Positions 38,448 to 63,028 of a stretch of DNA of 64,000 bases are shown here, one piece after another. Source of the DNA: Vermamoeba vermiformis (taxonomy: Eukaryota); assembly GCA_045837725.1 (NCBI GenBank), contig JBEWZL010000152.1:372001-436000 (forward strand), given 5' to 3'. The stretch's first letter is position 1; every line of letters begins with the position of its first letter. Under the pieces are notes generated by a model. The model saw nothing but the letters and a program-made list of their open reading frames with translations. It was not told the DNA's origin and searched no databases. The position numbers were made by a program, and so were the translations under genes.

Positions 38448-39223
38448 TTACAGTTTGTACAAGTACTCGCCTGATTGTGTCAGATAGCGCACCCACGGCA
38501 CTGCTTTGTAACCACTCTTCTCGAGCACTTTCAACTGTCTGATTTGCAGCCCTGAAGCAGTGACGTAAGGAATGTCAAACGAGATGCTGATTGGTCGGCG
38601 TGAGCTGTCTTCAGTGCTCACTGAGGACAGGCCAAAGTGTGCTTGCAGCGTCACTTCTTGCGCTCCTTGCAAGTGCTTGATCTTCCACACCATGGTATTG
38701 TGTGCTGGCTCGTAGGACGCCTTGCCAACACTCGCCTGCACGGGATGATGAGTACTATGGCGGCGGATAGGTACGATACTACTATACCTTTAGCTGTGGT
38801 GAGTCGCAGTCAGCTGGCACGGGTATGTTGATGACAATATCGTTGGCCGTGGATCGTGATTTGAACTGCGCTTTGGCTTTGATCAAATACTCCACTCTGC
38901 TGCCCGGATGAGAGTCAATGACACATTCGAGCTGGATCAGTGGCTTGAGTGGTTTGAATAGGCGATAAGTCATCAGTTCGAATTCTCCATCGGGAGGTAT
39001 GAAGGCGAGTATACTAATGTGTGATTAGAATGAAGCTCAGCGAGGTTGTTGACATACCCTTGCTCCTCAAATGGCATGACACGAACACATTGATGAAGTT
39101 TGACATCTGCCACTTCAATGTCTTTACACTTTTGAATATCAGAAGTGCCATCTATTCACATGTTACCATTATTTAAAATTGTAGTTAGTCTTTTTTTTTT
39201 TTGGTTTTTTTTGTTTTTTTTTT

Positions 39224-39261
<38 letters not shown>

Positions 39262-40185
39262 CATTATAAAAGTCTGTCGCGGTGTTGTTACCTGATACTC
39301 GTGGCTTGTTGAACTTGATGTGGTCATTGAGCACGACTTTCACTTCAGGCATGCCACTCAGTCGTGCATTGGCCGCGATCCTTCCCACAATTTCAGCGCT
39401 GAGCTGTGCACCAGTGGGTGACATCTGAATGACACGTGTCAATCCAGCTCCACTGACAATGGTAACACTACGTACCTGCATATTCACTCGCTCAATTACG
39501 TCCAAGAAGATCTCATTCTTGACATATTGAGGCAGTGGTCCGTGGAACAGAACTTTGGTGATGGCAGGCAGGGCAGGCTGAACAGGACGATTGAGCTCGT
39601 GACCTTGTTGCGTGATGTATGTCTTGAGCACTGCTGGCTCCGTGGTCTGGGGATAACCAAAGTCCAGCACCTCGTCGAGCAGTTCGTACACGATCACAAA
39701 GTTGTCGCGAATAGACTCCTCTTCCACGCTCTTAAAGTACTCTTTGAACACCTAACGCAGATCTCAGTTTGGGTCACGTGAACTGGTCGCGTACCTCAAT
39801 CAGCTTGTACAAGAAGTTGAGCACCATCATCGCATCGCTATTCATCTCAGTGACCGCAACGACTAGTAGCAAGTTAGTACAATGTACTTTCGATTTTGCA
39901 ATTCCGTTTTCAAATAAAACAGAATTCTCCGATATTTTTAAAAATATGCTAGAATATTTAATAATTTAGGTTAGCTCAATTATCATGCTTACGGTAGAGA
40001 TTGTTGTGTTTTACGTGGATGTCAGTTTTGCCTTCAACTTCGAATATTGGTCCTAAAACATTCTCTTCATCGTCGATGATGCGGCGCATAAATGCATCTG
40101 CGTGTGTAGCTGGCACTCCATCGCGATAGTTTCTTGATAGTAGAACTTTGCCAGTCAAATCCAATATGAGAATCGACGATATCAT
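38448..40185 (-). CDS. AP1M1: Clathrin adaptor AP-1 mu subunit
   Basis: ILDLTGKVLLSRNYR, EEESIRDNFVIVYELLDEVLDFGYPQTT, DVKFHQCV, FIPPDGEFELMTYRL, KSGYKAVPWVRYLTQSGEY. Confidence 0.9.
39191..39261. repeat. About 70-nt interrupted poly(T)/poly(A) tract inside an AP-1 mu intron
   Basis: Directly visible. It lies between the GT donor near 39290 and the AG acceptor near 39152 on the minus strand. Confidence 0.95.
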
Positions 40186-40408: not shown

Positions 40409-42129
40409 TTAGTCCTCTTGTTCTCGCTCTTGTGCCTCGCGCTCTTCAAATGTGATGACGTAGCGCGGCAAGCACTGCGCACTCTCAAACACAATGACCT
40501 CATTGCCCTCTGATAGCACGGGTTAGTGACGGCAATAAAATAGAACAATTGTAACTGCTGAATACGTACTGGGACTGTAATGCGAGTCGTAGCCAGGCAC
40601 GTGATCTTGACCGTCCATGCGACCAGTGCACTTGAAGCTCTTGCCCGTCAACATCTTCGCCATGATCAGCTGTGTGCTGTTGCGCTCCTCGCTGTACCAC
40701 ATCGCGTAGTCGCTGTACAGTGCGAAGTAGATGCCTTTGCCGAAATAGCCGTCGTCGAGCAGTTCAACTGACACGCCTTTCTTGGCCTTGGCAGCCTTCT
40801 TCTTGGTCTTGCTCTTGTCTTCAGCTTTCTTCAAGTCGTCTGGGTGCTTGAATCCGTCCTTAATAATGCACTGCACACTGTGTTCAGACGTGCCGTGAAA
40901 GCCCCAAATCTCTTGCGAGTGTTCTTTGTTCTTCGTCTTGTCGCTGTTTTGGATTTTCTGAACGAACAGATGAGCGAACGAGTTGACAATAGGACTTATT
41001 GTAATTATAATGTACCTTCTTTTTGTCATCGTAAGCGCGCTTCAATTTAGTATTTACAACGATGCCTATTGATTTGATTGCGTAGTTGGCCTGTGACTTG
41101 GCCATTGTTTGGAAGAACTTGCTGCACACTACCAGCCACAATAGTGTCAGTATTGAATACACATATGATGGTTGTCAATATGAACCTACCTCTGTCCCAC
41201 ACGTTCTGTTCTTCTTTGTTCATCTTCTGACCGTTGCGCAGTTCAATAACTTTGTAGCCGTTGTCGTCTTTCAAAATATCTTTCTCGCGCTCCAGATCAA
41301 TGTCGTCAGGAGCTCGTTCACCCTCTTCATATTCATCGGGGGTCCAGCCAAACAGACCAAGCAGTTGATCGTGCTCGTGTTCTGTAATGCTGTGTTCCTG
41401 TCTGTACGACACAGCTGTCAGTCACGTGTCAACTTGTCTCAATCACTCTGTTACCTGAACTTTTTGAGCAGTTTTTTGCCCTCCACACCGATCTTGTTGT
41501 CATTCAGCTGCACTTTCATCACGGCCTTGTACAGCTCGAGACCGGGTCTAATGCCACTGTTCAAGTCAGGCTGTGACACTGACGAATTTGATCGTTTGAG
41601 TGCTGGTCGTGAATTGCCCTTTGATGACGTGCTGGTCTCGTCCGCGTCTTTGGTCTTGCTTTGCACCGTTGACGCTTTCCTCGTCAGTTGGCTGCCTTGA
41701 CTGCCCTCGTCGTCTTTAACACGCTTAGTATGGTAGTACACGTAAAGCACATTACGTACCGACAATAGCTTGTGAACTTGATGCGGATGCCCCTCCTTCT
41801 TTCTTTTTCTTTTTCTCGAGAGCAGTTTTTTTCGGGTGTCTAAACTGTACAAAATGCGCAGGGTTTTGCCGGTAACAATTTTCATCGTACCAACACACGG
41901 GCTTGCTCTCGTCTTCCTCTGAATCGCTGGCTGCATCATTTTCTTCCTTGTCACTTTCTGGATCGTTTTTTGTGGAATTTTTATCACTATTTAATTTAAA
42001 GCCATTTGATAAATCCGCGGAACTGCTCTGTTTTGTGTCCATTAATTTTTGTTTTTTAGGAGGGCTTTCTTCCTCTAGTGGTTTAGATTCATTTGCCAAA
42101 TCCGCTGCTCTCTTTCTTTTTGGAGGCAT
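40409..42129 (-). CDS. PARP-family ADP-ribosyltransferase with N-terminal PBZ zinc finger
   Basis: MPPKRKR NLS-like start; PBZ CWYDENCYRQNPAHFVQFRHP; catalytic FHGT...GYFGKGIYFA..SDYAMWY...GNEVIVFESAQCLPRYVI. Confidence 0.88.
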
Positions 42130-42373
42130 ATTGAAGATAATAATGTATTTAACTAATTCACAATCTCCGTTTGCATAAAAATAGACAAAAGCTCCCTCCG
42201 TGTGCTCAATTCGAAGAAAAGATAAAAAAGAGGGCAGAAAAAAACCGCGAAAGGCAGCCGCCAGAACGAGCAAAAATCTTGACACAACGAGTTGATTGAC
42301 TTGTCGTGCTGTAAACGACACCTGTATATTAATTGGGCACATAGATTGCCAACACAGTGTTAACCAGTAAAGG

Positions 42374-43532
42374 ATGGGTGGAAAGAAATCTAAGCCAGCG
42401 AGAGAACAACCGCCAGCTTCAAATAAAAATACCAATAATAAGCAACCAAAATCTAATAAAGCACTCGAGTATAAATTATTGATTGTTGGCGATGCTGGTA
42501 AGTGTCGTAATAATATTCGGTTAAAATTGTAATTCCGGAGCGGATGTTTCTCCCACGCTAACTCGCAGAGGATAATATTATTGCTCAATATGAAATTAAT
42601 CACTATTATATTTACCGCTTATCCTCAGAGTTTATTGAATTTTGATTGTTTACCGTTTAATATTTTTGATATCAAGCAAATATTTCAGGCATTCTAACGA
42701 TTTTGTATTATAGGCGTTGGTAAAACAAACTTATTAACGCAATTTACGGTAATAATTTACGGTAATAATTAATGGAAAAACTGGCCAATAACACAAACTC
42801 AATAGGACGGCAAATTCTCTGACCAAGTAGCGAATATTGGAGAAGATTTTGTAAGTGATTTCGTGCGTCACACAATATGAAAATATTAATATGGTGTTTC
42901 CACGCAGAAACGAAAAGATGTCACAGTGAACGGACAGACGATTCAATTACAAATTGTAAGTACTCCACTGCCACTGACACGCGCTCGATCGTATTCTCGA
43001 GGCATATGAAGAGCATATTATTGCACCATGTATTAATCGATTGCCTACAGTGGGACACAGCGGGTCAAGAGAAGTTCAGGAAGATCACGTTCGGTCTGTA
43101 CCGCGGAGCCCACGGTATTGTATTGGCATATGACATCACTAAGAAAGCGACACTCGACAACTTGGACAAGTGGCTCAAAGACATCACTGACTACGGCGGT
43201 GAAAAGGTCACCAAGATCGTCGCAGGCAACAAGACGGTACGCGTCACTCATGTCGCACTCGTGCTCGTACTCATAGCATTGTATTTAGGACTTGGAGACC
43301 GAGAGAGTGGTGACCACTAAGCAAGGCCAGGTAAGATCATACTAACAGCGTGGTACTTGTCACGTGTGCTGATCGTGATCCGCAGGACTTCGCTGAATCA
43401 CACAAGCTTGGCTTCATTGAAACAAGTGCTAAATCGAATAAGAATGTAGAAGATATGTTCCAATTGATCGCAACCAAAATTTTTGAAGCTAAGCGTGATG
43501 CGCCAGACTCAGAGGGTTCGGAGTCAGATTAG
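42374..43532 (+). CDS. Rab1-like small GTPase, N-terminal MGGKKSK leader, no C-terminal Cys
   Basis: KLLIVGDAG|VGKT, NIGEDF, QI|WDTAGQEKFR, YRGAHG, GNKT|DL, ETSAK; ends DSEGSESD*. Confidence 0.9.
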
Positions 43533-44344
43533 AGCCAGAAGAGCAGTAAAATAAATCTCCCTTTATTTATTATTACAATCGTTGTCCTCGCACATACTCT
43601 TCATAAGATCGTGCTCTATTTCAAGACGATCCAGGTTCGATCTCGATCCCACAACAAAAACAGCGCATGTTGCGCATAAAAAAACAATTTTGAACTCGAG
43701 TGCTTTTGATCCATCCCAGGGGTCTTCAAACAGATGATGAACGGGAGTCTCATTTCATAATGACAGGTGGCGCCTAACCCCTTGTTGTGTTACGACAACA
43801 AATGGCCGCCTAACCCCTTCTGATCCAATTTACTGTTTAAAAACCTCTTGGGGCACAGTCGGTCCAGTTATTTCTGTAAAACATAATAGAATAAAAATGG
43901 GGGAATGGGAGAGGGTTGGGAGTTACGTAAAAAAGCAGATCCGCGGTGGATCTTTTGCTATAAAAAATTAATAAGGCTGGGGCAGTCTACTAGTGAAGCG
44001 CACTAATGTGAAATCACATTATAATTATTACATCCCTCTCGTTAACAAATTTACCGAGGTAGATCGTCAGGAGGCTCCTTTTGCCCGCTAGCAAAAAAAA
44101 GAACGGTTGAGGGCGTGCGGTAACTCTAGATGAGTACGAGAATATCTACATCAACAATAGTCTTTCGTAATTAAATAAAACGTTGCGCGATCGTTGAAAA
44201 GTTGACAGGAACCTGCGCCAATAATTTTGGCGGCCCCATTCCTTTTGTATTTATCCTGACGTGCACTTCAACGCCGCTCTTACGGTGCACTTTATTGACC
44301 TATATTCAGCTACTTCTCAATTATTAGCACAATACTGCGAGCAG

Positions 44345-45599
44345 ATGGGTAACGCGGGAGGAAAGAAGAAGGGCGGCAAGAAAGGAGCCAAAACAGATAA
44401 TGCATCCAGCGGTGGAACTAAAACTCTTGCTAACAACTCTGAATATGACAAATTATTTAGAATATTAATGGCAGGCGATCTAGGTAATTTACCTAAAATA
44501 ATTTCGCACCCACCGAATAATCACCAAATATAGTTAACTAATATCCATAATATATTGGGAGAAATAATTTTGAAACTGATATTCAAAAACGAAAAATCTC
44601 CGCTTAATATTAAATTACCGATCCTTTGACAAATATCAAAATTAAGATTAACACAATATTAATGTGCTAATAAATGATGTGGGGGTGTAATATTGGACTA
44701 CAGCTCTGTAAGAAATTGCGAGAGTTGTCAACGTGTCGTTTTATTCAGTAGCTTTCTAACTGCTCGCCTAGGTGTCGGAAAGTCATGCGTCGTATTACGT
44801 TTTACAGTGAGTAACATTTTAAATATGAATATATGGGACTCAAACTCTTTACAGGAAAATTTCTTTTCGGATACGCCGATCTCGACGATTGGAGACGACT
44901 TTGTAAGCAATGAACAATATTGAAAGAGCGAATGAGATAACTGACCGTATATTAATAGAAAACAAAAACATTTGACGTCAGAGGAGCAAAAATCAAAATG
45001 CAAATCGTAAGTAGTTTGCTAACACTATTCAAGGCATGATATTAATAGTTTTATGATCTAGTGGGACACAGCGGGCCAAGAGAAGTGAGTGCTCGATTAT
45101 TAGCAATAATGAAATTGTTATGTGAGGCAGTACACGGAACACAATGTAACGCGTGCTTTTAGGTTCCGTTCCATTATTACCTCCTCATACTACAGAGGGT
45201 CGCACGGTGTATTGATGGTGTTTGATATCACTAATCGCGCGAGCTTTGAAGGCTTGGACAAGTGGTTTGAACAGATCAAGACTTACGGCAGTCCTGACAC
45301 CACTATTCTCATTGTTGGCAACAAAACGGTGCGGCTCTACTACAACTCGAAATACAATATGCTTCTAACATGTATAATATTGTAGGACTTGAACTCTCAA
45401 CGAGCTGTCTCGGAACAAGAGATCAAGGTAAGTCCTGTGTCACGATTTCCAGCCATAGGCTCTTACTAATGCTAACCTTCAGGATTATTGTGCTCGCCAA
45501 CAAGTCGAATATGTAGAAATGAGTGCGAAAGACAACAATGGTGTAGAACAAGGTTTTATCAGGCTCGGTGAGCTGATCCACGCTAGACAAAACGAGTAA
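44345..45599 (+). CDS. Rab1-like small GTPase, N-terminal MGNAGGKKKGGKK leader, no C-terminal Cys
   Basis: EYDKLFRILMAGDLG|VGKS, STIGDDF, WDTAGQEK|FRSIITSSYYRGSHG, GNKT|DL, EMSAK; ends LIHARQNE*. Confidence 0.9.
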
Positions 45600-45792
45600 A
45601 GCTGCTGTACAAATGTCATATTATTTATTGCTTTAAATCTTGCGGTGTTTTATTAGTAAAATTATCATAACATAAGCGTGCTAGACTGGCGTGTAAACAT
45701 GGCGGCATTATTTTTTTGAAGTTCGCAATTTCTTTGGTACCAGTACGCGACATGTTTTTCGAATTTGAATTTGAACTGAAGAGAACCCAACA

Positions 45793-47469
45793 ATGAAGAG
45801 AAAGCAAGACGAAGTAGTTGTGTTGGATAATGATGGCAACAAACGAGCCAAATTGTCTGTTCAATGCGAGGATCAAGTTGCCACCCTCGAATTTGCTCCT
45901 CCAATAAGCAAAGACAGATTACGACAGCTAATTGCAGAAAAATTCAACAGACAAGCCGGTATGTAAATTATTGATAAAAGCCATCATCAGGCCTTCTCAG
46001 AAAAATAAAAACAATTATTTTGTTTTTCGGATCAGCCTAAGATTTATGAAATTCCTAGCGCACAAAGTTAACTTTCAACTCGCAAACTGGACATTAAAAT
46101 AGCAATAAATACAGTTTTTCCAAATAAAAGAATTAACGTTGTTCGAGCAGACGACTTGCTGTCGATCTTATCAGCAAAGGGAGATGTGGTCAGTCTCAGC
46201 GCTCTAGGAACTCGGCCGCAGCGGTATCCTGGAGAACTAACTGTTATTTTCATCGACTCATCGACGAAGAATGATATGAGGCACAACAAAGACCTCTATG
46301 TTGGAGATGGCAGCGCGCAAGTTGTCGATCTCACGTACGCACAATCTTGCCTGCTCGACATGTATTAATCCTTACTGTTACAGAGAAGATGCTACTAATT
46401 TATGCGCGCGGTGCCTGCAGAAATACGAAGATGTCAACGACAAGTGCTACTATCACCCTGGCAAATTGGTCGAGTCACGAACTGAAGCTCGCAAATTGAT
46501 TGTCAAGTCTCTCGAGGTCAGCAAAGAGTTAATAAGACATCCTAAGTATTAACACTAACGTACAAAATAGTCTTCCGAGTCTCTTGTCAATGGCGTGCCT
46601 ACTGAAGTGTCGCGAGAGTACAACAAGAAATTGCTACGATGGAGCTGCTGTCAAGGCAAAAAGAGTAAACTTGGGTGCACAACAGCTGACAAGCATTTGG
46701 TAGGTCATAGTCGTTGTGTGGTCATCGCAGTGAGTTAACACCTGCCTAGGCAATGACAGTGCCCAAGTCCACCGATGACAGACTACTCAAGCTGTTCTCA
46801 GAGCAGAGCACACCAAAAACATCAGGCCCCAACAATAACAATGTTGCAGGCGATGATGATGTGCAGATTGTGGAGCGTATCTTGGCACCAGTAAATATTC
46901 CCGGCGTTGATACTGCTGGACAACACGTGCTGAACACGTGCATTGATCGCAACAGAAGCTACTGTCTCAATGAACAGAAGACACACACGTGGACTGGAGC
47001 CACGCATGGTAATGACAACCGCACTGAGCAAACGTGGATGAGACTAACAATCAACAGAGGGCGGTGGTTATTTAGAGTCCGATGTAGATCCGCAGCTGTT
47101 GTGGTGCATTCAATTTGACAAAGCACTCAAGTTGCACTCGCTGCAGATACGCGCACCAGAAGGTAAGGGTGCGTAGTACCGTCTTACGCGGTACTGACCA
47201 ATCCTGTTGCAGATCAAGCACCCAAGACAATCAAACTGTTTGCCTCGCGCGTCAACATGGACTTCAACGACATTGACAGCATCACTCCGACACAAGTCAT
47301 CACTGTGCTGCCAAAGAATCTCGGTCCGAATGCCATCATCAAGCTCAATGTCAGCAAGTTCGCGAGCTGTACTTCTCTTACCATATTTGTAGAGGACAAC
47401 CAATCAGACGCAGACACTACGCGTATCGATTACTTGCAGCTGATTGGTCAGACTGTTCGACGTCATTAA
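45793..47469 (+). CDS. SIM-rich protein with beta-grasp-like N-domain, Btk/CHORD-like zinc finger and C-terminal PITH domain
   Basis: PITH: CLNEQKTH..YLESDVDPQLL..KLHSLQI..APKTIKLF..MDF..SLTIFVEDNQSDADTTRIDYLQLIG. Zn finger: CARC..CYYHPG..WSCC..GC..H. Confidence 0.8.
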
Positions 47470-51262: not shown

Positions 51263-54200
51263 TTACAGCGGTGCGAGCAGTGTTTCCAAGCTGTTGACTG
51301 CACTCGTCAGCGCGAGCACAAAGCCAGCAGTGGGTGCAGGAGCGAGTGGCACGGCATAGGGCGAGGTACCGAGCTCACTCGTGCCCGACAAGTACAGTGC
51401 GCGCAATGCTTGCACAATAGCGTGACCGTGTTGCGTGAAGTGCTGCACAATGAATGCCAAGAATTCAGGGTGTGGCTGCTGTTCCAAGGGCAGTCGTGTG
51501 CCTCGCAGTGTCTCGCACATGTGTTGCACGGACAAGATGAGTGCGCGCTCGTTGTAAATGCGGCTCTGTAGCGTGCCGTCACTCGTGCCGCGCAGTTTGT
51601 CGTACCCTGCTTCGAGGAAATAGGGCTCGCGCACTCCCAACACCAGTCCTTGCAGACTCAACAGCAGCTGTGGCGAGTGTTAGTCAGATCTGAGAATGAC
51701 ACGTGTCAACGAGTGACTTGCCTGCAAGAGATTGGAGGTGTCAGGATTCCAGTCCTCAGTGGTGCTCTTCGTGATCCACGTGCCCAACAGACTCAAACAG
51801 ACACTGCCGTCCGTGTTCAAGTTGGGATGCAACTTCTGACTGGTCTTGGAATAGTAGTGCACGAGCGGAGGGACTTGCGGATACTGATCGGGCAAGTAGA
51901 TGTCAAACACAAACAGGGACTGAAAGTTGAGGGTTAATTAATTGTTCTCTATCGCCTCTGTATATTCATTGAAATCATTCTGCGATGATTAATGCGGCTG
52001 TTACGGTACCTGATAGTACGGCGTGTCTTTCGGGCCAACGATGAGTGCTTTCAAGAGGTCAATGCGTCCCTCGAACACTTTGATGTAGATGCCAGGTGTC
52101 ACATTCTGTTGCAGCGTGGTCCATTCTTTCATCACCAAGTTGCAGAACTCGCTCGTAATATTTACCTGCAGATAAAGACTCTCTGTTAGTCGATGTTAAC
52201 AGCGTGCACATTGCGCTACTGACATGGCTGCGTGTGAGGAAGTGATGTTGCGCCACCTCTTCGAGCACTTCGAAGGATGCAACACTGTCATTCAGCTCAC
52301 TCGCACTGACACTTGGTGGCACAATGGACTGCGTTTCATGCGCGACAGTACTCGAGGGTTGAAGCCACTGCTGCAGTTTGGTGATGGCAGACCAGAGCAG
52401 TCCTGAGCTCTGTGCCTCACTCTGCGCCGTGTCCTCTGCACTCTCCTCGCTCCCTTCGTACTCCTCGCCACTCTCTTCGTCGCTCAGCTCGTCAGTGTAC
52501 TCGTCGCTCAGCACGAACAGTTCGCCAGGCCACATCTCGCTGCTCACACCGCTCGTCCACTGCACACTGATGCGAGGCCCGTGCAGTGCAGTCACTTCAC
52601 CGAGCCACTCGTGCACGGTCAGTCCTGTCTCGCGCTGTGTGGGCAGTCGCAGCACGACATCGCCGAGCTGATAGCTGAAGTCAGGGTGCGCGCACAGATC
52701 GTAGATTGACACTTGTTCTGTCACGTGCTCGTCGGGCACTGTCAAGTCACTCTTGAGCCACATGACTACAGCTGTCTGGTGCGCGGCATTGACACTTTGA
52801 ATGACACCTGTCACTTCACCGCGTGTCACAAAGTCGTCGGGCTGGAAGTCATTCTCCAACAAGTGATCACGTGATTTCAACAGCGTGCTGTCCACGTGTG
52901 CTGTCACTGTGCCATCCTGCCACTTGACATCGACATATGTCCGTGTGCGAATAATGCGCGCGGTCACCCATTGCAAGCCTTGCAGGGCTGGTGGGAGGTT
53001 ATTTCCTAATTTGGAAGGTGAAATCAAACACCAGTCGCCCAGTTGCCAAGTGTAGGGCTGCGAGTACTGCAGCACGTGCAATGTAGCGACTGGCACGTGG
53101 CGAGGAGGGGCCAGCACGTGATTTCCATTTTCGGTAATTTGTTGCGCTGCTGACCACGTGACTCCAGCCCACACTGGTATGACACGTGTCACCACACCAT
53201 ACTTGTGCGCACGTGGAATGAAATTTCCTTCAGTGTACTCCGCGAATGGCTCAGTTTCATCTTCGGGCACGTGATTCGCATCTTGCAAGAGGCCCTGTGA
53301 AATTTCAACGACTTGACCCACGTGATAATCCACGCATTCATGAACAATCTGCAAATAGAGCTCTTCGTCCCAACTGCCCTCGTCCGAGTCATAGTTTGAC
53401 ACGCTGTCACTTGCCTCGCTGTCTGATGACGTGTCACTCGCGGTGGAGTCACGTGACTGTTCTTCATCTTCAACCTCCGCGTCAGTGTTCAGTGAACCGC
53501 TGGAATGATGTTGCTTGAATTTCTTGAACTGCAGCCACAGCGCACGCCAATTGACAGCTGCATCGTTGACAGGTGTCACTAGCTCTACCGTCGCGTTGTG
53601 AATCAGAGCACGTGACCCATTCACGAACTGAACTTCTACGTGACTCATCACTGATGACACGTGTCAAAATGAGGCCCGTGCCATGAGTGCTAAAAATAAC
53701 TTACCGCCGTCTATTTTTCCGACCCAATTCGAGCCCTGGTGACTGAGTGCCACGTGACTGCCGTGCTCGATGGTGATTGGGCGCACATCACGTGACGAGA
53801 TCTCGTTGAAGACAGTGACATCACGTGACTTCTTCGGTCCATATTTGGAAGTGATCTTCTTGGTGAGCGCGGCGAGGTCGTCGAGGGGCGAGGAGTACAC
53901 GGCCAGATCCAGCCCCAACTGCGCGACATTAGGCCTGGTCGTGCATATATATGTATATGTGGTGTGTACTGACCTGCACTGCCTGCACGGTGCCTGATTG
54001 CGCGGCATTGCACACCACGTCTGCGGGCTGAAAAGCACGATCGACCACCGTCACCTGATCTGCAGCCTCGATCGTGAGCACGTGATTCTCTTCCAGGCCT
54101 GTGTCGTCGTCGAGGGGCCAGGACAGCTTGATTTGGTTCGGTTCAGTGAACGGCTCTTCGTCCTCGTCCACATCCGCGGCTAGCTCTTCATTCTCCCACG

Positions 54201-54351
54201 CCACTAGAGACAGATCAGTTTGGTGTGCAGAATATTTAATATATATTGTCCTGATATTAATACCTTTGGTCACAATGGCCAGACTGGTCGGCTCGTCGTT
54301 TACATAGACCAGATCCTCTTCAAAAATGTTGGGTGGATCTTTAGTGGCCAT
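51263..54351 (-). CDS. UBE2O: UBE2O-like E2/E3 hybrid ubiquitin-conjugating enzyme
   Basis: VVDRAFQPADVV, TYVDVKWQDG, HPDFSYQLGDVVLRL; UBC domain RIDLLKALIVGPKDTPY..YPQVPP..HPNLNTDGSVCLSLLGTW..EPYFLEAG. Confidence 0.9.
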
Positions 54352-54562
54352 TCACGAAGCAGTCAACTAATACGTACTAGGGGATATATATTACAAATTA
54401 ATACAACAAATGTGCACGAATTCGGGCAATGTGTTCTGGCCGTAGTGTTGATGTTCTTCGCGTGTGAGGAATGAAATGTTTTTTCAGCCGAGATCCAGCT
54501 CTTGACAACAGCTCACTGACGTCGAATAATTTATATAAATAATATCACAAACTGTAAATATC

Positions 54563-56373
54563 ATGAGTGTGCTGTCTAAAGATTCAGTCAAGATCATTGC
54601 CGAGACAGTCGGGATTAACACGATCAGCGAGGATGTTGCAACACACGTGTCCTCTGATGCTGAATATAGACTGCGCGAGATTATACAAGTATGCGATAGT
54701 GGTTAAGCAGCCTAATCTAGTCAAATAATATTAATTGGTGCTTATTAAAGGAAGCGATGAAATTTATGGTGCATAGCAAGCGAGAAAAATTAACTACAGA
54801 AGATATAAATAGCGCACTACGACTAAGAAATGTCGAGGTATGCATATGATACTACAGCGTTATTTTCGGAGCATAGAGAATATTTATTTATTTTTTCAGA
54901 TATTATTTATTCATTTTCATAATTCTTTTGACTATAATTGTCGTAACTAGCTTAAGATAACAAATAAATATTATATTAATGTCGAATGACAACACTATTA
55001 ACATGAAAATTGGTTAAAGGCGCTGTACGGTTATTCTACACGAGATCCGCTGCGGTTCGTGCGTGTGGCAGGTCAAAAAGACTTGTTCTACGTGGAGGAT
55101 CAAGAGCTCGATTTCAACGAACTGTTCAGCACCACGCCACTCGGTTCCAATCCGCTGCTCAAGATGCCCAAGTGTCCGCGTCAGATCTCCCTGCAAGTGC
55201 ATTGGCTCGCAGTGCAGGGCGTGCAGGTAATTACTACACTATTGTGCCTATACTGTGCATATATATTGAGCATACACGTACTCACGCACTGCAGCCACAA
55301 GTGCCGCAGAACCCGAACTTCACGACCACGAGCAGCGAGGTGAGTGAGCCGAGTGTCAAGAAGTCGAGCGAGGACGAGGCAGCGGTGGTGAGTGCCACGA
55401 CTGTCGTGTCGAGCGAGGGCGATGTCGAGGTGAAGCAGACCGTCAAGCACGTGCTCAGCAAGGAACAGCAGCTCTACTACAAGAAGATCACTGACGCCGT
55501 GCTCGCGGTCAAACAAGGTGTGAGCAGTGACCACGAGGAGCTGTTGCACGCAGCCCTCACCTCGCTGAGCACCGACCCCGGCATTCATCAGCTGCTGCCC
55601 TACTTCACCAAGTTCATTGCCACCAATGTCACCAACAACTTGCGCCAGCTGCGGCTGTTGCGTGCACTGATGCAAATGATTGAAGCCATGTTGAAGAGCT
55701 CCTATTTGCATCTCGAGCCATATTTGCACCAACTCATGCCCGCCATGCTCACTTGTCTCGTCGGCAAACGACTGTGCGAGTCACCGACGGAAAATCACTG
55801 GGAATTGCGGGACTTTGCCGCACAGCTGGTGGCACGCATCTGTCGCCGCTACGGCAAGGAATATCGTGATTTGCAGCCACGCATCACCAAGACACTGCTG
55901 CACGCCTTTTTAGACCCCGTCAAGCCACTCACCACACACTACGGCGCTATTGTCGGTCTCGGCAAGATGGGCCCGCTGGTGGTGCAAAGCTTGTTATTGC
56001 CTAATATGGTAGCGTATCTGAATCTGTTGCTGCCAGAGCTCACAGCTGCCAATCCAATCAAACGACTCGAGGCCAACAAGTGCTATGGTGCATTATTGGT
56101 GCGATATATATATGAGGCATAACAGAACTGACTGATTACTCACACGTACCGCAGAATGTTTCAGGCACGTACTTTGCATACGCGATGGATCTGTCCGCCA
56201 CCACGAGCAGTCTCAAGTCCAAGACCAACAAAGAAGCAGACAACGACAAGAAAACAGTGCACGAACTGCTGCCCGACTTTGCGCACTACTACAAGCAGCT
56301 GTACGACATCTTTGGCGAGGCACTGCTGCCGTACTTGAAACAGAACCGCGAAGTACTGAGCACCATTCTTTAA
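54563..56373 (+). CDS. TAF6: TFIID subunit 6
   Basis: Histone fold AEYRLREIIQEAMKFMVHSKR; HWLAVQGVQP; KHVLSKEQQLYY; DPGIHQLLPYF; NHWELRDFAA; THYGAIVGL. Confidence 0.95.
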
Positions 56374-56454
56374 TTCTCAACACCTGTACAAGTAATATAA
56401 TAATAATCGTTGTGGATAAATGCGCGCTGAGAATTAGCTGCCCTTGTATGTACA

Positions 56455-59400
56455 TTATTCCGCGGTGTTATTTTTAGCTTGCTTTTGACGCTGTTTTTCC
56501 GCTTTCCACTGCTCAATGCGCTGCTTGAGCTCGACATCGGGCTTGAGCATGTCGAGGGTGAGGGGCTGACGATTGAACGGATCAGTCGGCGAGGTGAGCA
56601 AGTGGCGCGTGATCACCGTGCGGTCGATGGTCATGCCCGAGGGCAGCACCACGGGGTCACTCATCACCGTGCTCAACAGCGGGTCCAAGAACTCGTCAGG
56701 CGCGTCACTCAGATCCAGTTCATCCTCGCGTGCCTGCGCTGCTTCTTCTTCAATGGCACGCAGCACTTCGTCAAAGCTGTGCACGTGTTCGCTGCTCAAC
56801 AGACTCTTGTTCTTCAGCACTTCACTCACGCGCTGCCACGTGCGCAGATCAAATGCACGTGTGTCACGCACAATGGCGCGCACAAAGTCCTGGCTGCGCA
56901 AGCCAATAGCGATCAGTGCCAGACGTGTCAGCAGTTCACCAGGTGAGAATCGTGCGCGGCGATGAGGCTGCACGGCGAGTCTCGCAGCATTCGGTCCGAC
57001 GAGTTGACGCGTGAAATAATTGACGAGCACGGCCAATCGCTCCAACACCTCTGCGCGGTGCAGCACTGAACTGCCGTCATCGAGCTTGGTGACCACCACG
57101 AGCAGCTTGAGTGTGTCGTGTGCGAGCAGACTGAATGTGGTCATTTGATTGGTCTCCGTGTGCAGCTCTTGTTGCAGTTCAGTGCGGTGTTGTGCATCGC
57201 GTTGTGCCCACTGATCGCGGTCCTCCATCATCAGCTCAATCTCGCGAATGCGCGGCAGCTTGCTCATCAGTTCTTCGAGCAGGTACATGGCATCGTTCAT
57301 GATCATGTTCAAGAAGTGCATGAAGCGGTGCTCGTCGTGCATCACTGCGCGGAACTCGCTCGGGTACTCGTTGCTGGTGGAGGCACTCAGTCGTTCAGCG
57401 AGCAGTGCCAGCAACAGCTTGGCAATGTGGCGCCGCACAAAGAACTTGTCGTAGAACTGCGAGGCCCGGCCCGTGCGTTCAATGTCAATGTAGACATCGA
57501 GCAGTCCGTGCAGCACTGTGCGCGGTGCTTGGTCTTGCAGTGGATCTGCTTCCCAGGACAGGCGCGCACGTGACGGCAGTTCAGCCCCGTCCTCGTCGAG
57601 GTGTCGATAGAGGGCTGTCATCTCCCACAAGACTTGCACCAACTTGCCGCGGAGATAGGGCGAGTTGATGCCGTGCTGCTGGCCAGCGAGGGGTGCGAGG
57701 AACTTGACGATGAATGTGACGAGGTGGTGGTAGTGCTGGGGCGGCAAGTGCAGCTGATACACGTCCTCGAGATCTTGGGCGCGCACTGCTGCTTGCATCT
57801 TGAGCACGAACAGCACGAAGCTGGCGAGATCATCGACGAGATACTCGGGCACCAGCGCGAGGGCAGGCACGTGATGTTCAGCGAGGTGCAGCAGCCAGCG
57901 CGCAGTGAAGGAGTAGAACTGCAGGGCGTGTTGCAGCAGTTCAGGGTCCAAGAGCTGCGCGTCCATGGTCAGCTTCATCACGGCAAGGTTGTCAATCTGT
58001 TGCGCGAGTGCTGTCAACTGCTGCTCGTTCACGGCAGCCATCATCGCGTGTCCGCTCCACTCAGCACGTGTCGCATTCAGCTGCGCGCGTCGTTCTTGCA
58101 TGTGAATCAGTTGCTGCACGAACTGCAAATAGGCCTCGCAGCTGCTGGCCAGACCCGTGTGCAGCACTTGCAGCGTGGTGAAGAAACACTGCGTCACAAA
58201 GCTGTGATTGGTCAGTGCCGCGCTCGCACTGTCACGTGGCTCAGTCGTGATCAGCTTGGTCTCGCTGCTGTACTGCAAACCGAGACTGTTCTGCTGCAAA
58301 AATTCAACTTCAATGCTGCTGTGTTTGTCGAGCTTCAATTCAGTGAACGGCTGTGACAACTTCAACATGACAGCTGTCAAATTGAGGAACACACCGTCCG
58401 AGCACGTGGTCACTTGACGTGTCATCAAGTGTCCTAATTGAGAGCGCGACTTGTTCTGCTGGCACAGTGCCACCACGCACTCCAACACGCCTTCGGTGTC
58501 GCGCGACAGTGCTTTGCGCTCCATTTTGATCACCTGCGTGAGCGTGCTGGCGAGTGAGGTGTGCAGCGAGTGCAGCAGTGCGCGCAGTTGTGTGAAGGCC
58601 GCGGACAGTTGCGCACGTGTCACTTGACCGCGCTGTGGGAAGTACTGCTGTGCCACCGCGAACTGTTTGTAGCTGCAGAGTGACAGCGCGGGACCGAGCA
58701 GTGATTCGAGCTCGAATTGGCGACCGTTCATGAACCGTGTGGGTGACCAAGCCACGTGACGCTTGATGCTGGCAGCGAGGGCAGGGTGACAGCTGAACAG
58801 TCGCAAGAAAATAGCTGCAATGGATAGCGAGTGCGTGTCAACCAGGGCACCACGCGAGATCTTGCGCGCGAGATCGCTGACCAGGGGATGAATCACGTGA
58901 TCGAGCGTGTCACCGTGCTGATCAGCTACCAGGGCCAGCAGTGCAGAACTGACTTGCAGCTCGTAATCTCCTGAATATCTCGACATGCTCGAATTAGCAT
59001 CCGCTAATAATAGCTCTTCCAAAATAGGCCATGTGACAGTATTCTGCTCGCACAGTGGTGACAGCAGTGCCGTGTCTTGCAGCACCAGACCCAAATAAGT
59101 CGCGATCGATCGTTCCACTGTTGTCACGTGCTCTGCGGTGCTCCACGTGCGACCTGTCAGCTGATCACGTGCTCGGTTGAAGCTCCGCACGAGATACTCA
59201 ATGGCATCACGTGACGCGGTGAATTGTGCGAGTCTCTCGAGCAGCAGCGAGTCCACGTGACCAGGTGTCAAAGTGTCACTCGCGCTGTGTGTCAATTCGT
59301 CACTCAGCCCTGGTAGATGGGCACGATCTTTGCTGGCACCTGTCAATGATACGCGGAATATTTCGAGCAATCGTTCATGAAGCAACTGCGCCGGAGACTT

Positions 59401-60089
59401 GACTTTGACAGGTGTCGTGTCAGTGAGGGGGCTGGTGGCACTCTGCTCGCTCTGAGGGGCAGTCTCGTGCTTGGTGTAATGGCCCTCATGCTTATTGTTG
59501 TCCTCGTTATTAAGGCCCGCAGTATTATTGTTATCATTAAGGCCCTCACTATTATAGGATGGGCCCTCACTCTGCGTCCTCGTCTCGCTCTTGGTGCTCA
59601 CACGTGTCAAGAACTGCGCGTTGAGCTCCTGATGACTGCGCACGGGCTCGCTGTGCTGCACTGGCTCTGTGCGCGCAGTGGACTGTGTCACAACGGGCTC
59701 GCTCGTCGTCAATTTGTAGCGACGCAAGCGCTTGTTGCGCAGCTCTTCGGATGTGGAGGGATCTTGAACGGGTGCTGGAGCAGGAGTGATGTTGGTGTTG
59801 TTAGTATTTTCTACTCTTCGCGGTACATGTTGTTTGGTCAATAGCTGAACATTTACAGTAATTAGCGACAATATTAATTATTTTTCAAATTAATGCTAAA
59901 TATTCGTCGACGAAGTTGTGCCTTCACTGCAAATTGAATACTAACAGCATACGGACGATGCGCTAATAATAAAAGTACAGCGCTTACCTTTCGCAAAAAC
60001 ACGGCTAATACCAAGACAACAACGACGAAGAACCAAATAAAGTTGTTGGATGTGGCGGTGTCTACGCCAGTCGCTTGTTGTTCCTCCAT
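56455..60089 (-). CDS. UFD2: U-box ubiquitin conjugation factor E4 (UFD2/UBE4) with predicted N-terminal TM helix
   Basis: Ufd2 core ([39 protein letters not shown]) and U-box [19 protein letters not shown]. Exon 1 (60089-59988) splices in phase 0 to 59844. Confidence 0.9.
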
Positions 60090-60330
60090 TGCATTGTAGT
60101 GATGCAAAGGTTGATATAAAATACTTACTCCATGTTTACACCCAATTCCACCACGCACCATGAAATCTCCTCGGTCGAGAATTCTAGATGCGTTCTTTGA
60201 TTTTCTGAGAACTGACAATGACGCGCTGCCTCCGTACTGAGTGTGCCAATCCAACGTATAATCATCATTGCAACATATCTCGATTAACAAGTGGCCTTTA
60301 TTTGCACTCGTACACGATATACACAGGGTT

Positions 60331-63028
60331 TTATTTGGCTTGTTTGGGTGCGCCAGGTCCTATAAATAGAGCCGCTGGTCAGATCTGCTACTTGATCGCT
60401 GCTACACGAGCTAGCGCGACTACTTACCAGGCACATATCCGCGACCCATCTGTGGCTGCGAGGGATAGGGTGCGCGGGGCTGCGCAGTGGCACCAGGCAC
60501 TTGTTGTTGTCCCGCCCAGTACTGTGGTGGCACATTGCCAGTGCCTTGCGGTGGCATCCAATAATACACAGGGCGTTGTTGTGCGGGGTAAGTGCCAGGC
60601 TGGGGATAGTTGCCAGGATAGGGCCCTGGTGCACCGGGCTGCGGTTGAGGTTTGGGCGCGAGTTTGGGATCGGCAGGGTATGGTGGCACATAGCCAGGAT
60701 AGGGCAAGGTGGGGGGCAGCGCATCGAGATCGGGAGTCTTGGGCAGCATGCTGGGTGAGGTCGGGGCTGGTGACATGTAGGGCATGGGCTGCAGGGGCGG
60801 CATGAAATCGGGGTGCGGAATAACATTGGGTGGCATCATCATCGACATGGGCTGTGGTGGCACCCACTGACCCTCGTAGCCGTACTCGTTCATGAACGCG
60901 TAGTCGTCGTAGCCGTAGTCCACGCCCATCATGTAATTGCCCTCCACGGCCATGTACTCCATGCCAGGTGCCATCACATTGGGCGCGGACGAATTCTGTG
61001 CTGGCACGCGATAACTCTCGCGATATCGACTGCCCTCCCACTGCGGCACCACATCACGTGCCACTTTCTTGCCGCCAGTGCTGGTGCGCTGTTTCATGGC
61101 GCGACAGTAGACCTCGGAGATGGACTGACGCGTGTCAATGTACGGGGCCTTGCGCGAGGCCGGGAAGAAGGACGAGACTGGGGGCTGTGGCACGGACTGC
61201 GAGGAGCCCAGCAGCGTGGCAGCGAGGGGCTTGAACTCTTGCGCATTGGGATTCAGCTTCAGCTTGGGACGGGCGGGGGCTGGGGCGGTGGCACTGGTGG
61301 CACTCTTCTTGTCCTCCGCAGCGGGCTTGGCAGTGCCACGTGTCTGCAAAAATGACTTTTTCTGCGCGAGTTCGGTGCTGAACTTCTTGAATTCTTGCAA
61401 AGTCTGTTCGCGGCGCTCAGTCTTGCTCTTCTCTTTGAGACTGAAGTTGACAAAGTCCTGCAGCACCTTCTCACTCATCTTGGGCGACGCGGGCTGCAAG
61501 TTGAGGGCACTGACGGCTTTGGGGTCACTGATCAGCGGTGAGGTGCGGCCGTGCAGCTTGGGCGAGGTGTGTCCTGCGAGCTGTTGTTTGAGTCGCTTGA
61601 ACTCCGTCACCAGCACCGTGCGGTCCTGCGGTGTGACGGGCGGTGACATGTACACGGACAGCGAGGCCGTTCTGTTGCCACGCACTCGCTTCAGCAGCGA
61701 GGGCTGACTGTTGCTGCGTGTCTGCACGCGTCCAATGAGATCTTCCGCCTCTCTGGACTCTGCTGGCACTGTGCCACTCTCCGTGTTGGTGTTATTGCCA
61801 ATTTTGTCCGCACTCTGCGTCAACACACTCGCGCTGGCACCTGTCACACGTGGTGGTGCATCGGTGCCACGTCGTGCTGGCACTACGTATTTGGACTTGG
61901 GTGCGACAGCGGTGCTATTATTAGCCGCGCTATTATTAGCAGCAGGCTCCAATTTGATCTTCGCCTCGTTGGGCCGCAACACACTGGAATAGCGCTCCTC
62001 CTCGTCCAAGTGCTCAAAATTGACTTGTCCGCGCTCCTCTGCGATGTGTATGTTGTCCGACTGATCTGCCAATATCTCCGCGGCAATGCGCTGTGCCTCG
62101 TGCTCCAACTTCTTGTAGCTGGGATCGCTCTTGTTGATCACACTCGTGTAGATCTCCTCGCGGAAGGTGCTCTTCACGCCAAACTTGCGCTGATTCACTT
62201 CGAACTGGTCCCAACTGCCCGTAGTGTGCGCACCTTCGTCGAACTCCAGACTCGCGTGACTGGCAATGGGCGGATCCAGCTTGAACGGCACGAACTGTTT
62301 CTCGTGCAGATTGCGTCGCTTGGAGATACCGACGTCCGTGAACTCGTCGTTGTACTCGTCGTGGTAGTCGTACTCGTCGCCGCGCAGTTCCACGCCCTCG
62401 CTCTTCACTGCCTCCTCGCGCACGAACAGCCCGCCCTGGCCCTCGTGATACAGCGCGTGCAGGCCACTGTCTGCGCCCACCACATCGACCTCGCGCGCCA
62501 CGATCTGCACCACCTCCTCGCCACTCAACAGCACTCGTGCCGCAGGACGAGCCAGCACGTCACTCTTCTTGCGCGCCCAGGACAGCACCACGGCCAGTGC
62601 GCCGATGGGCTGTTGCGCACGTGACTTGGCCGCAGCGAGCAGTGCAGCAGGATCCGCGCCACTGCCAAAGTCGACGAGCAGCTCGTTGTAGTTGTGCGGC
62701 GAAGAGAGTCCTACGGTGTGGAAGTGTCCCTCCCAGATCTGCTGGTCACGTGTCTGCACTTCCACGCGCTGACCCTGCACCTTATTGTAAGGACCAGGTA
62801 CATATATATATATGGCGCGTGCTGGACTTACAATGAAGCTCAACGCGATGAATAACATGCGCTCTAAGTTCCGATCAGCTGACTTGTCTTGATCCGTTCT
62901 GAAAGCAGTTTCAAAATTAATTTTAAAAATCATATTGACTCTATATAACGCATTTGTATTGTCGCTACATACTTGTGATCATTTGTCTTCTTATCCACAT
63001 TATTTTTATTTTTCTGTGCTTTGCTCAT
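60331..63028 (-). CDS. ATXN2: Ataxin-2/Pbp1 homolog (LSm, LsmAD, PAM2)
   Basis: FTDVGIS, WDQFEVNQRKFGVKSTFREEIYT, HIAEERG, EEERYSSVLR; PAM2 KLKLNPNAQEFKP; Pro/Gln/Tyr-rich tail. Confidence 0.9.

Follow-up and report, generated by a model that had tools for sequence, protein, structure and literature searches.

How is a Rab GTPase held on a membrane when it lacks the C-terminal cysteines of a geranylgeranylation motif? The question is raised by two neighbouring Rab-family genes, hereafter G1 and G2, of Vermamoeba vermiformis, an echinamoebid member of Tubulinea. They lie in a stretch of 64,000 nucleotides (nt) of contig JBEWZL010000152.1 (positions 372,001 to 436,000, forward strand), which is called the window as a whole and from whose first letter all positions below are counted. 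Nearly all Rabs are considered to be prenylated and to pass through the REP/GDI cycle, and no geranylgeranylation motif was found in either protein. The answer favoured here, with a probability of about 0.62, is that G1 and G2 are old paralogous Rabs that escape geranylgeranylation, would be anchored by an N-terminal myristoyl group together with lysines, and represent a fast-evolving offshoot of an N-acylated Rab1-like group of Amoebozoa.

Two expressed Rab genes without a prenylation motif

G1 and G2 are real, expressed and spliced Rab genes, which lie on the same strand and are separated by a spacer of 812 nt (Table 1). GT..AG borders delimit all 13 introns, and each intron recurred as a joint in contigs of the runs X1, X3 and X7 from three studies, runs whose RNA status was guessed and whose contigs are spliced. 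Together with those of X21, an RNA-seq run of a strain mostly 90-95% alike to the window, these contigs were mapped on 41700-46600; among the joints listed for X21, six of the 13 modelled introns were present. The contigs start 46-103 nt upstream of the G1 ATG and 19-78 nt upstream of the G2 ATG. Since the longest transcribed leaders of both genes contain no upstream ATG and an in-frame stop lies at 42368, two codons before the G1 ATG, glycine is residue 2. Exon-based searches matched near-identical full-length proteins, P0003 for G1 and P0057 for G2, and the clusters of these contain the EukProt V. vermiformis transcriptome proteins P0056 (G1) and P0066 (G2), which share their start and end with the gene models. 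Pseudogenes were ruled out by the intact frames, the splicing and the mostly synonymous strain differences: the 40 letter differences listed, out of 168, include 29 coding ones of X21, with 24 changed codons synonymous and 3 not. P0003 and P0057 each list a longest contig of 2244 nt, roughly both coding sequences plus the spacer, and may lie on one spliced contig through read-through or an assembly merge; depth was zero at 43832-44159, within the spacer, in the four mapped runs.

The expressed form of G1 and G2 has no prenylation motif. G1 contains no cysteine at all, and the two cysteines of G2 (residues 52 and 170) are both within the G domain. The G1 stop is crossed without a further joint by an X3 contig (43383-43538) and by an X1 contig reaching 43546, and the G2 stop likewise by X1 (45481-45649) and X3 (45481-45643) contigs. 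A terminal cysteine is absent from all five aligned database proteins and also from P0155, a G1-lineage protein 54% identical to G1. The preliminary description had both proteins ending right after the G domain without a terminal cysteine; the absence of cysteine and the G2 end stood, with helix 5 spanning residues 188-204 of 205 in the AlphaFold model of P0066, but in P0056 helix 5 stops at residue 196 of 206, leaving G1 an acidic tail of about ten residues. In all, 22 residues follow the G5 motif in G2, 23 in P0155 and 32 in G1.

A prenylated isoform made by alternative 3' splicing, with the cysteine-less end as one form of several, was weighed at this point. The last exon of G2 holds one donor-like site at 45568 (score 7.5), which could join an AG at 45676 to yield a cysteine end; 13 joints and 26 loose ends exist beyond those listed, and contigs drop rare variants, leaving room for a rare isoform. 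However, the contigs run across this donor-like site unspliced, those of two studies read through both stops, splicing at 45568 would cut helix 5 of G2, and the last exon of G1 has no donor-like GT (best score 1.5, against 4.6-11.1 for the true donors). The five database proteins lack a cysteine end, as do all 32 further cluster members checked in the related group described below. No cysteine-coding last exon or alternative CC/CxC end was seen in these data, and an isoform of this kind is very improbable.

N-terminal leaders and the proposed anchor

The consensus for N-myristoylation comprises Gly2, a small residue at position 6 and Lys7. Both leaders fit it, and their start with Met-Gly and a polybasic stretch, as first described, was borne out by the gene models, P0056, P0066 and P0155. 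The net charge over residues 2-16 is +3 in G1 and +6 in G2, and it rises to +7 over residues 2-30 of G1. No cysteine occurs in the leader of G1, G2 or P0155.

P0155 was retrieved by a profile search of 1.84 billion representatives, the best 150 of which were listed, and its first eight residues are unchanged from G1. The string MGGKKSKP is identical in G1, P0056, P0003 and P0155; the leader of this lineage runs to 31 to 38 residues before the P-loop with its first eight constant, and the persistence of these eight residues in a protein only 54% identical indicates that the G1 leader is conserved. Two in-frame 3-nt deletions of strain X21, at 42405 and 42430, both fall downstream of MGGKKSKP. 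The G2 leader is retained in P0057 and P0066; the G2 exon-based search gave no distant orthologue, and the conservation of this leader was seen only in near-identical proteins.

Based on these features, a mechanism can be proposed in which Met1 would be removed and N-myristoyltransferase would then acylate Gly2. The myristate and the lysine patch would together bind acidic membranes, which may be the inner plasma membrane or phagocytic or endosomal membranes. REP/RabGGTase and GDI act on the prenyl tail (PMC2943070), from which we infer that delivery by the former and extraction by the latter would be bypassed in G1 and G2, with membrane residence set by charge and lipid instead. Myristoylation, plasma-membrane targeting and REP/GDI independence of the pair, all proposed in the preliminary description, keep the rank of predictions from sequence. 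The pair may have acquired new effectors, and considering its diverged effector face, it probably no longer performs the endoplasmic reticulum-to-Golgi task of Rab1.

Experiments on apicomplexan proteins offer a precedent for this logic. The G2A substitution makes PfRab5B diffuse, and the C5A form of GAP45 stays partly on membranes, which its authors linked to a more charged leader (PMC3912013). By analogy, this precedent supports the anchor logic of the pair, yet the modest charge of G1 may give weak binding.

A related group in Amoebozoa

Does the anchor belong to this locus only? Of the 7980 matches of a profile search with the G1 lineage, the best 120 were listed and comprised 116 new proteins. 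A Met-Gly start without a terminal cysteine was found in 41, a canonical arrangement in 63, both features in 2 and neither in 10, counts that are not frequencies in nature, as the query profile favours Met-Gly leaders; several of the ten are 5'-truncated or have an internal MGC. In a tree of the G domains alone, clade A held 35 rows and clade B 13. Support for subsets of A and B was 95/90 and 95/86 in an 89-row tree, whose bootstrap had not fully settled, and 98/99 and 85/91 in a reduced tree.

The two clades share a clear pattern. All 40 full-length members have Gly2, and 39 of them carry a cysteine at positions 2-6; the mean leader charge is +1.9, versus +3 to +6 in the cysteine-less leaders. 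The distance from the G5 motif to the end of the protein is 20-32 residues in the members, most often 22, and 45 or more in 63 of 64 canonical matches. Judged from these sequences, an N-terminal glycine combined with a shortened, cysteine-free tail is not private to the G1/G2 locus. Like the pair, the clade A and B proteins have Gly2, a basic leader, an end right after helix 5 and no terminal cysteine. Contrarily, nearly all have the leader cysteine, and those listed keep the canonical Rab1 switch I, neither of which is found in the Vermamoeba pair. P0177 of Nolandella, which is unplaced, and P0236 are further proteins at or in the group with cysteine-free basic leaders.

Ten clusters, chosen mainly for named sources, were looked up, and the nine that gave an organism are all amoebozoan. 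The genera named are Arcella, Difflugia, Pyxidicula, Nolandella, Flabellula, Rhizamoeba and Trichosphaerium for clade A, and Stygamoeba and Sappinia for clade B. NCBI places Trichosphaerium in Discosea, and we take the remaining genera to belong to Tubulinea or Discosea. This lineage was absent from the 80 loci of a metagenome DNA scan, and of 69 Rab open reading frames read from those loci, 68 end in cysteine. A scan of viral contigs gave 79 Rab open reading frames in 78 of 80 loci, and the absence of a Met-Gly start among them leaves no sign of a viral source. The ESM Atlas yielded generic Ras-family clusters only.

These relatives bear on the possibility that the pair is not lipidated at all. 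RABL-type proteins are soluble Rab-like GTPases, and G1 and G2 might be soluble in the same way, with a basic leader serving protein or nucleic-acid binding or nuclear import. The leaders are predicted to be disordered in the models of P0056 and P0066, and the RabF motifs are eroded, both of which would suit a soluble protein. This reading is nevertheless improbable, as Gly2 is present in both paralogues, in P0155 and in every full-length relative, the neighbouring cysteine of 39 relatives gives a dual-acylation pattern, and exactly the first eight residues are invariant in the G1 lineage, which fits the recognition site of an N-terminal enzyme.

Several other proteins were encountered near the group. 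Leaders of the Gly2/Cys type, combined with the lack of a terminal cysteine, also occur in P0153 of clade B and in the unplaced P0173, P0191 and P0193, all of them divergent and Rab1-like. P0233, a clade A protein, is annotated by NCBI as coming from the locust Schistocerca gregaria and is probably an amoebal sequence within that assembly.

Placement of the pair and probable origin of the proposed anchor

Both proteins are clear members of the Ras superfamily with complete G domains, scoring 188 (G1) and 181 bits (G2) against Pfam Ras; the AlphaFold models had predicted local distance difference test (pLDDT) scores of 86.6 for P0056 and 83.2 for P0066, and Rab11, Rab1 and Rab8 were the top Foldseek matches. 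The best PDB sequence matches of both are Rab1/Ypt1, and Rab5 was absent among the 60 best PDB matches listed for either protein. Matches of Rab1 type rather than Rab5 type indicate that the putative N-acylation arose separately here from ARA6/Rab5b. The Rab1-like assignment of the preliminary description held only in part: the PDB matches of the pair supported it, with a small margin over Rab8 in similarity, but the G domains are only about 46% identical to Rab1 and the trees left both proteins unplaced, outside the supported Rab8, Rab18, Rab2/14 and Rab11 clades, with subfamily labels of the reference rows assigned by reading their sequences. G1 and P0155 grouped at 100/99 in the 89-row tree.

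Residue comparisons bring the pair closer to the amoebozoan group. For G1, G2 and P0155 alike, mean identity is highest to clades A/B, with G1 at 51.0% to clade B, 48.5% to A and 46.4% to Rab1, and P0155 at 45.1% to clade A versus 40.0% to Rab1. At 14 sites diagnostic of clade A versus canonical Rab1, P0155 agrees with clade A nine times and with Rab1 never, G1 splits 5:1 and G2 4:4. In approximately unbiased (AU) tests, neither a union of G1, G2 and clade A (p 0.167) nor a single origin of all N-acyl rows (p 0.175) was rejected. We infer that the pair derives from the truncated-tail group with Gly2 and a nearby cysteine, and that the Vermamoeba lineage would have lost the cysteine, with lysines as the second signal. 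An independent origin of myristoyl and basic-patch anchoring had been proposed for the pair; it survives as a separation from ARA6/Rab5b, but the anchor switch itself is probably not the invention of the pair, considering clades A and B. The loss of cysteine and the more basic leader are probably what is local to it.

A number of points weigh against the favoured reading. On the side of the anchor, the near leader of G1 with its +3 is a modest second signal, and the PfRab5B C3A fusion was soluble in fractionation (PMC3912013), so that myristate and a few basic residues may not suffice. On the side of descent, several clade A diagnostic residues are common to other Rabs, the sites of G2 are evenly split, and the profile scores of G2 differ little (196, 196, 199 and 192 bits for Rab1, A, B and Rab8). 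Both proteins form long branches, which joined neither A nor B in the 89-row tree and were drawn toward the outgroups (84/87) after 37 rows, including other long branches, had been dropped. The AU test has little power, as a control union with Rab11 also passed (p 0.093), and the association of Met-Gly with a missing cysteine has none, comprising only three phylogenetically independent pairs. The loss of the tail behind helix 5 might also have arisen by convergence.

A rival reading is a separate origin of the same anchor, in which Gly2 and the lysines were gained in the Vermamoeba lineage from a prenylated ancestor of Rab1, Rab8 or Rab18 type, independently of A and B. Neither G1 nor G2 is joined to A or B in any of the free trees, where A and B are not sisters either, and the fewest trait changes on the 89-row tree number seven; among Rheb proteins, N-acylation arose in seven protist lineages (PMC5869587). 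Against this stand the highest similarity to A/B, the matching truncation point and the clade A residues of P0155, and an N-acylated ancestor was at hand, since the group is present in other Tubulinea. A separate origin is unlikely.

Descent from the amoebozoan group also allows a bolder formulation, which is tentative and well short of an even chance: Amoebozoa would possess a subfamily of Rab1 descent, old and so far undescribed, that exchanged the prenyl/REP/GDI cycle for N-acylation, and Vermamoeba would have gone further, to myristate with lysines only, an acidic, Ras/Rho-like residue in the effector loop and, in G1, a conserved asparagine in switch I. If true, this would be a plasma-membrane, charge-regulated signalling protein derived from Rab with a non-standard switch, and a second N-acylated lineage beside ARA6/Rab5B.

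Switch regions

The G1, G3, G4 and G5 boxes are intact in both proteins, and the only box residue replaced is the threonine of switch I (the G2 box) in protein G1, where asparagine is found. This threonine binds Mg2+ and the gamma-phosphate in Ras-superfamily proteins. Among 253 aligned Rab rows, the position is threonine in 247 and asparagine in four, all of the G1 lineage, and an acid at RabF1 position 3, which we take to correspond to Ras Asp38, occurs in seven, all of them G1, G2 or orthologues. The RabF1 motifs IGEDF (G1) and IGDDF (G2) thus read as first described; the asparagine is an addition to that description.

The other RabF motifs are recognisable but altered. Switch II is changed in G1 and has a one-residue insertion in G2, and the canonical Rab1 effector loop of switch I was found in neither protein. 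Ahead of strand 1 and within switch II, G2 still has residues of Rab1 type. P0155 shares the asparagine, the acid and an altered switch II with G1, and two hydrophobic residues of its effector face are changed as well. To judge by these residues, G2 is probably a working switch, and the asparagine suggests that the 'on' state of G1 is altered; G1 probably binds GTP with a weakened or changed 'on' state.

A stronger version would reduce G1 to a decoy or pseudo-switch tethered to the membrane, able to bind nucleotide or the regulators of Rabs but not to signal through a GTP-locked switch I, leaving only G2 to cycle normally. The restriction of the replacement to the G1 lineage, its retention in P0155 together with the effector-face changes, and the role of the threonine speak for it. 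We consider it rather unlikely, as the P-loop, the switch II glutamine and the NKxD and SAK motifs of G1 are intact and the predicted fold is complete; it is also compatible with the anchor part of the favoured reading and would not replace it.

Introns and duplication

Six intron positions are common to G1 and G2, one of phase 1 in the P-loop and five of phase 0, as the preliminary description had it; G2 has in addition a seventh intron (45085-45162), which closely follows the G3 box and is of phase 2. Identity between the two proteins is 37% (79 of 215 columns), or 42% within the G domain, and their DNA is alike in short stretches only, of which the best, at the G3 box, matches over 27 nt. 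This limited likeness ruled out a recent duplication and gene conversion, and any duplication must be old. No third Rab gene occurs in the window.

Tandem duplication had been read from the shared introns. In P0128, a plant-type Rab1 model that is mis-joined, four of the six positions coincide with junctions, three of which presumably also occur in human RAB1A; among the retrieved loci, no intron-bearing Rab1 gene was usable for comparison. These four positions therefore look, on indirect grounds, like general Rab1 exon boundaries, which favours Rab1 ancestry but makes the shared introns weaker evidence of duplication. Both genes have the derived acid at RabF1 position 3, which speaks for common ancestry, and together with adjacency it favours an old duplication, which an AU test of the G1 and G2 union neither rejected nor demonstrated (p 0.218).

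Relation to known systems

ARA6/RabF1 of plants and Plasmodium Rab5B resemble the pair in combining a Rab G domain with a Gly2 extension and no C-terminal geranylgeranylation motif (PMC3912013, PMC4912828). They are Rab5-type and dually acylated at Gly2 and Cys3, whereas G1 and G2 are nearest to Rab1 and have lysines, no leader cysteine and a putative acylation. The pair thus follows ARA6/Rab5B-like anchor logic but does not belong to that group. Canonical Rab1/Ypt1 shares with the pair the G boxes and the best PDB matches, and several intron positions appear to be shared too; unlike it, the pair has no hypervariable tail and no CC/CxC, and has a basic leader of 30-35 residues and the RabF1 acid. 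Rheb paralogues of Euglenozoa also lost the C-terminal motif and gained myristoylation of Gly2, with or without palmitoylation, as verified for one Rheb protein (PMC5869587); Rheb, however, is of the Ras family and has no REP/GDI cycle.

PMC5869587 describes Rheb N-acylation as repeated among protists and names one Rab5-related paralogue as an N-acylated Rab. Rab1 is reported to have expanded greatly in Amoebozoa, and Entamoeba to have Rabs whose prenylation signal is novel or absent (PMC2943070). Two Rab7-like Acanthamoeba proteins lack a terminal cysteine in PMC10913462, the available text of which does not contain 'myristoyl', and neither 'myristoyl' nor 'prenyl' occurs in the available main text of PMC8923023. 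The literature covered gave neither an account of an amoebozoan Rab1 with N-acylation nor a printed name for clades A/B; the main survey of amoebozoan Rabs lay outside this coverage and may already include the group.

A Rab1-like swap across Tubulinea and Discosea would show that the change of anchor is repeatable in Rabs, as in Rheb. Clades A and B would then be a natural experiment on Rab targeting, with the same effector face, another anchor and no hypervariable tail, to which the Vermamoeba pair adds a cysteine-free, charge-based anchor and an altered switch. The Rab2-like proteins P0004, P0007 and P0012, of which P0007 comes from the EukProt set of Nematostelium gracile, carry a Cys-Cys leader at the N terminus and have a short tail; two of the three lack a terminal cysteine and the third has a single one. 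They are a possible second N-terminally S-acylated Rab lineage, and in view of them anchor swaps may be commoner in protists than print suggests.

Features of the window

Table 1. Positions of the G1/G2 pair, its parts and its neighbours in the window
Feature	Position	Strand	Details
Adaptor-complex medium subunit gene	38448-39751	-	
Divergent neighbour of G1	about 40523-42180	-	PARP catalytic-domain match, 27.9 bits (cut-off 26.7)
G1, Rab-family GTPase gene	42374-43532	+	7 exons, 6 introns, 208 amino acids
G1 exons	42374-42497, 42714-42748, 42806-42850, 42908-42955, 43051-43236, 43289-43330, 43386-43532	+	
G1 leader	42374-42397	+	MGGKKSKP: Gly2, Ser6, Lys7; candidate N-myristoylation and basic signal, from sequence
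G1 exon 3, switch I	42806-42850	+	Conserved Thr replaced by Asn; RabF1 position 3 is Glu; shorter than Rab1 by one residue
G1 last exon	43386-43532	+	G5 box and helix 5, then a short acidic tail up to the stop; AATAAA follows at 43550
Candidate U13-type box C/D snoRNA, between G1 and G2	43713-43825	+	Rfam snoU13, whole model, 26.5 bits
G2, Rab-family GTPase gene	44345-45599	+	8 exons, 7 introns, 205 amino acids
G2 exons	44345-44483, 44772-44806, 44855-44902, 44959-45006, 45062-45084, 45163-45328, 45386-45427, 45483-45599	+	
G2 leader	44345-44392	+	MGNAGGKKK...: Gly2, Asn3, Lys7, six lysines, from sequence
G2 exon 3, switch I	44855-44902	+	Thr kept; Asp at RabF1 position 3
G2 last exon	45483-45599	+	G5 box, helix 5, stop; no hypervariable tail
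PITH-domain protein gene	47167-47469	+	

The snoU13 candidate (E 0.014 in 5 kb) does not reach the gathering score, which is 46. Both a C and a D box are present in it, and it retains the 9-nt element of the model that presumably pairs with 18S rRNA at the 3' end; the candidate also contains a 13-nt direct repeat (43771-43783 and 43807-43819). The gene with the PARP match shares a short promoter region with G1, and a Cys/His motif upstream in it was read as PBZ-like. Further downstream, the G+C content climbs from about 0.42 to 0.52-0.57 in 52000-63000, a region with long exons.

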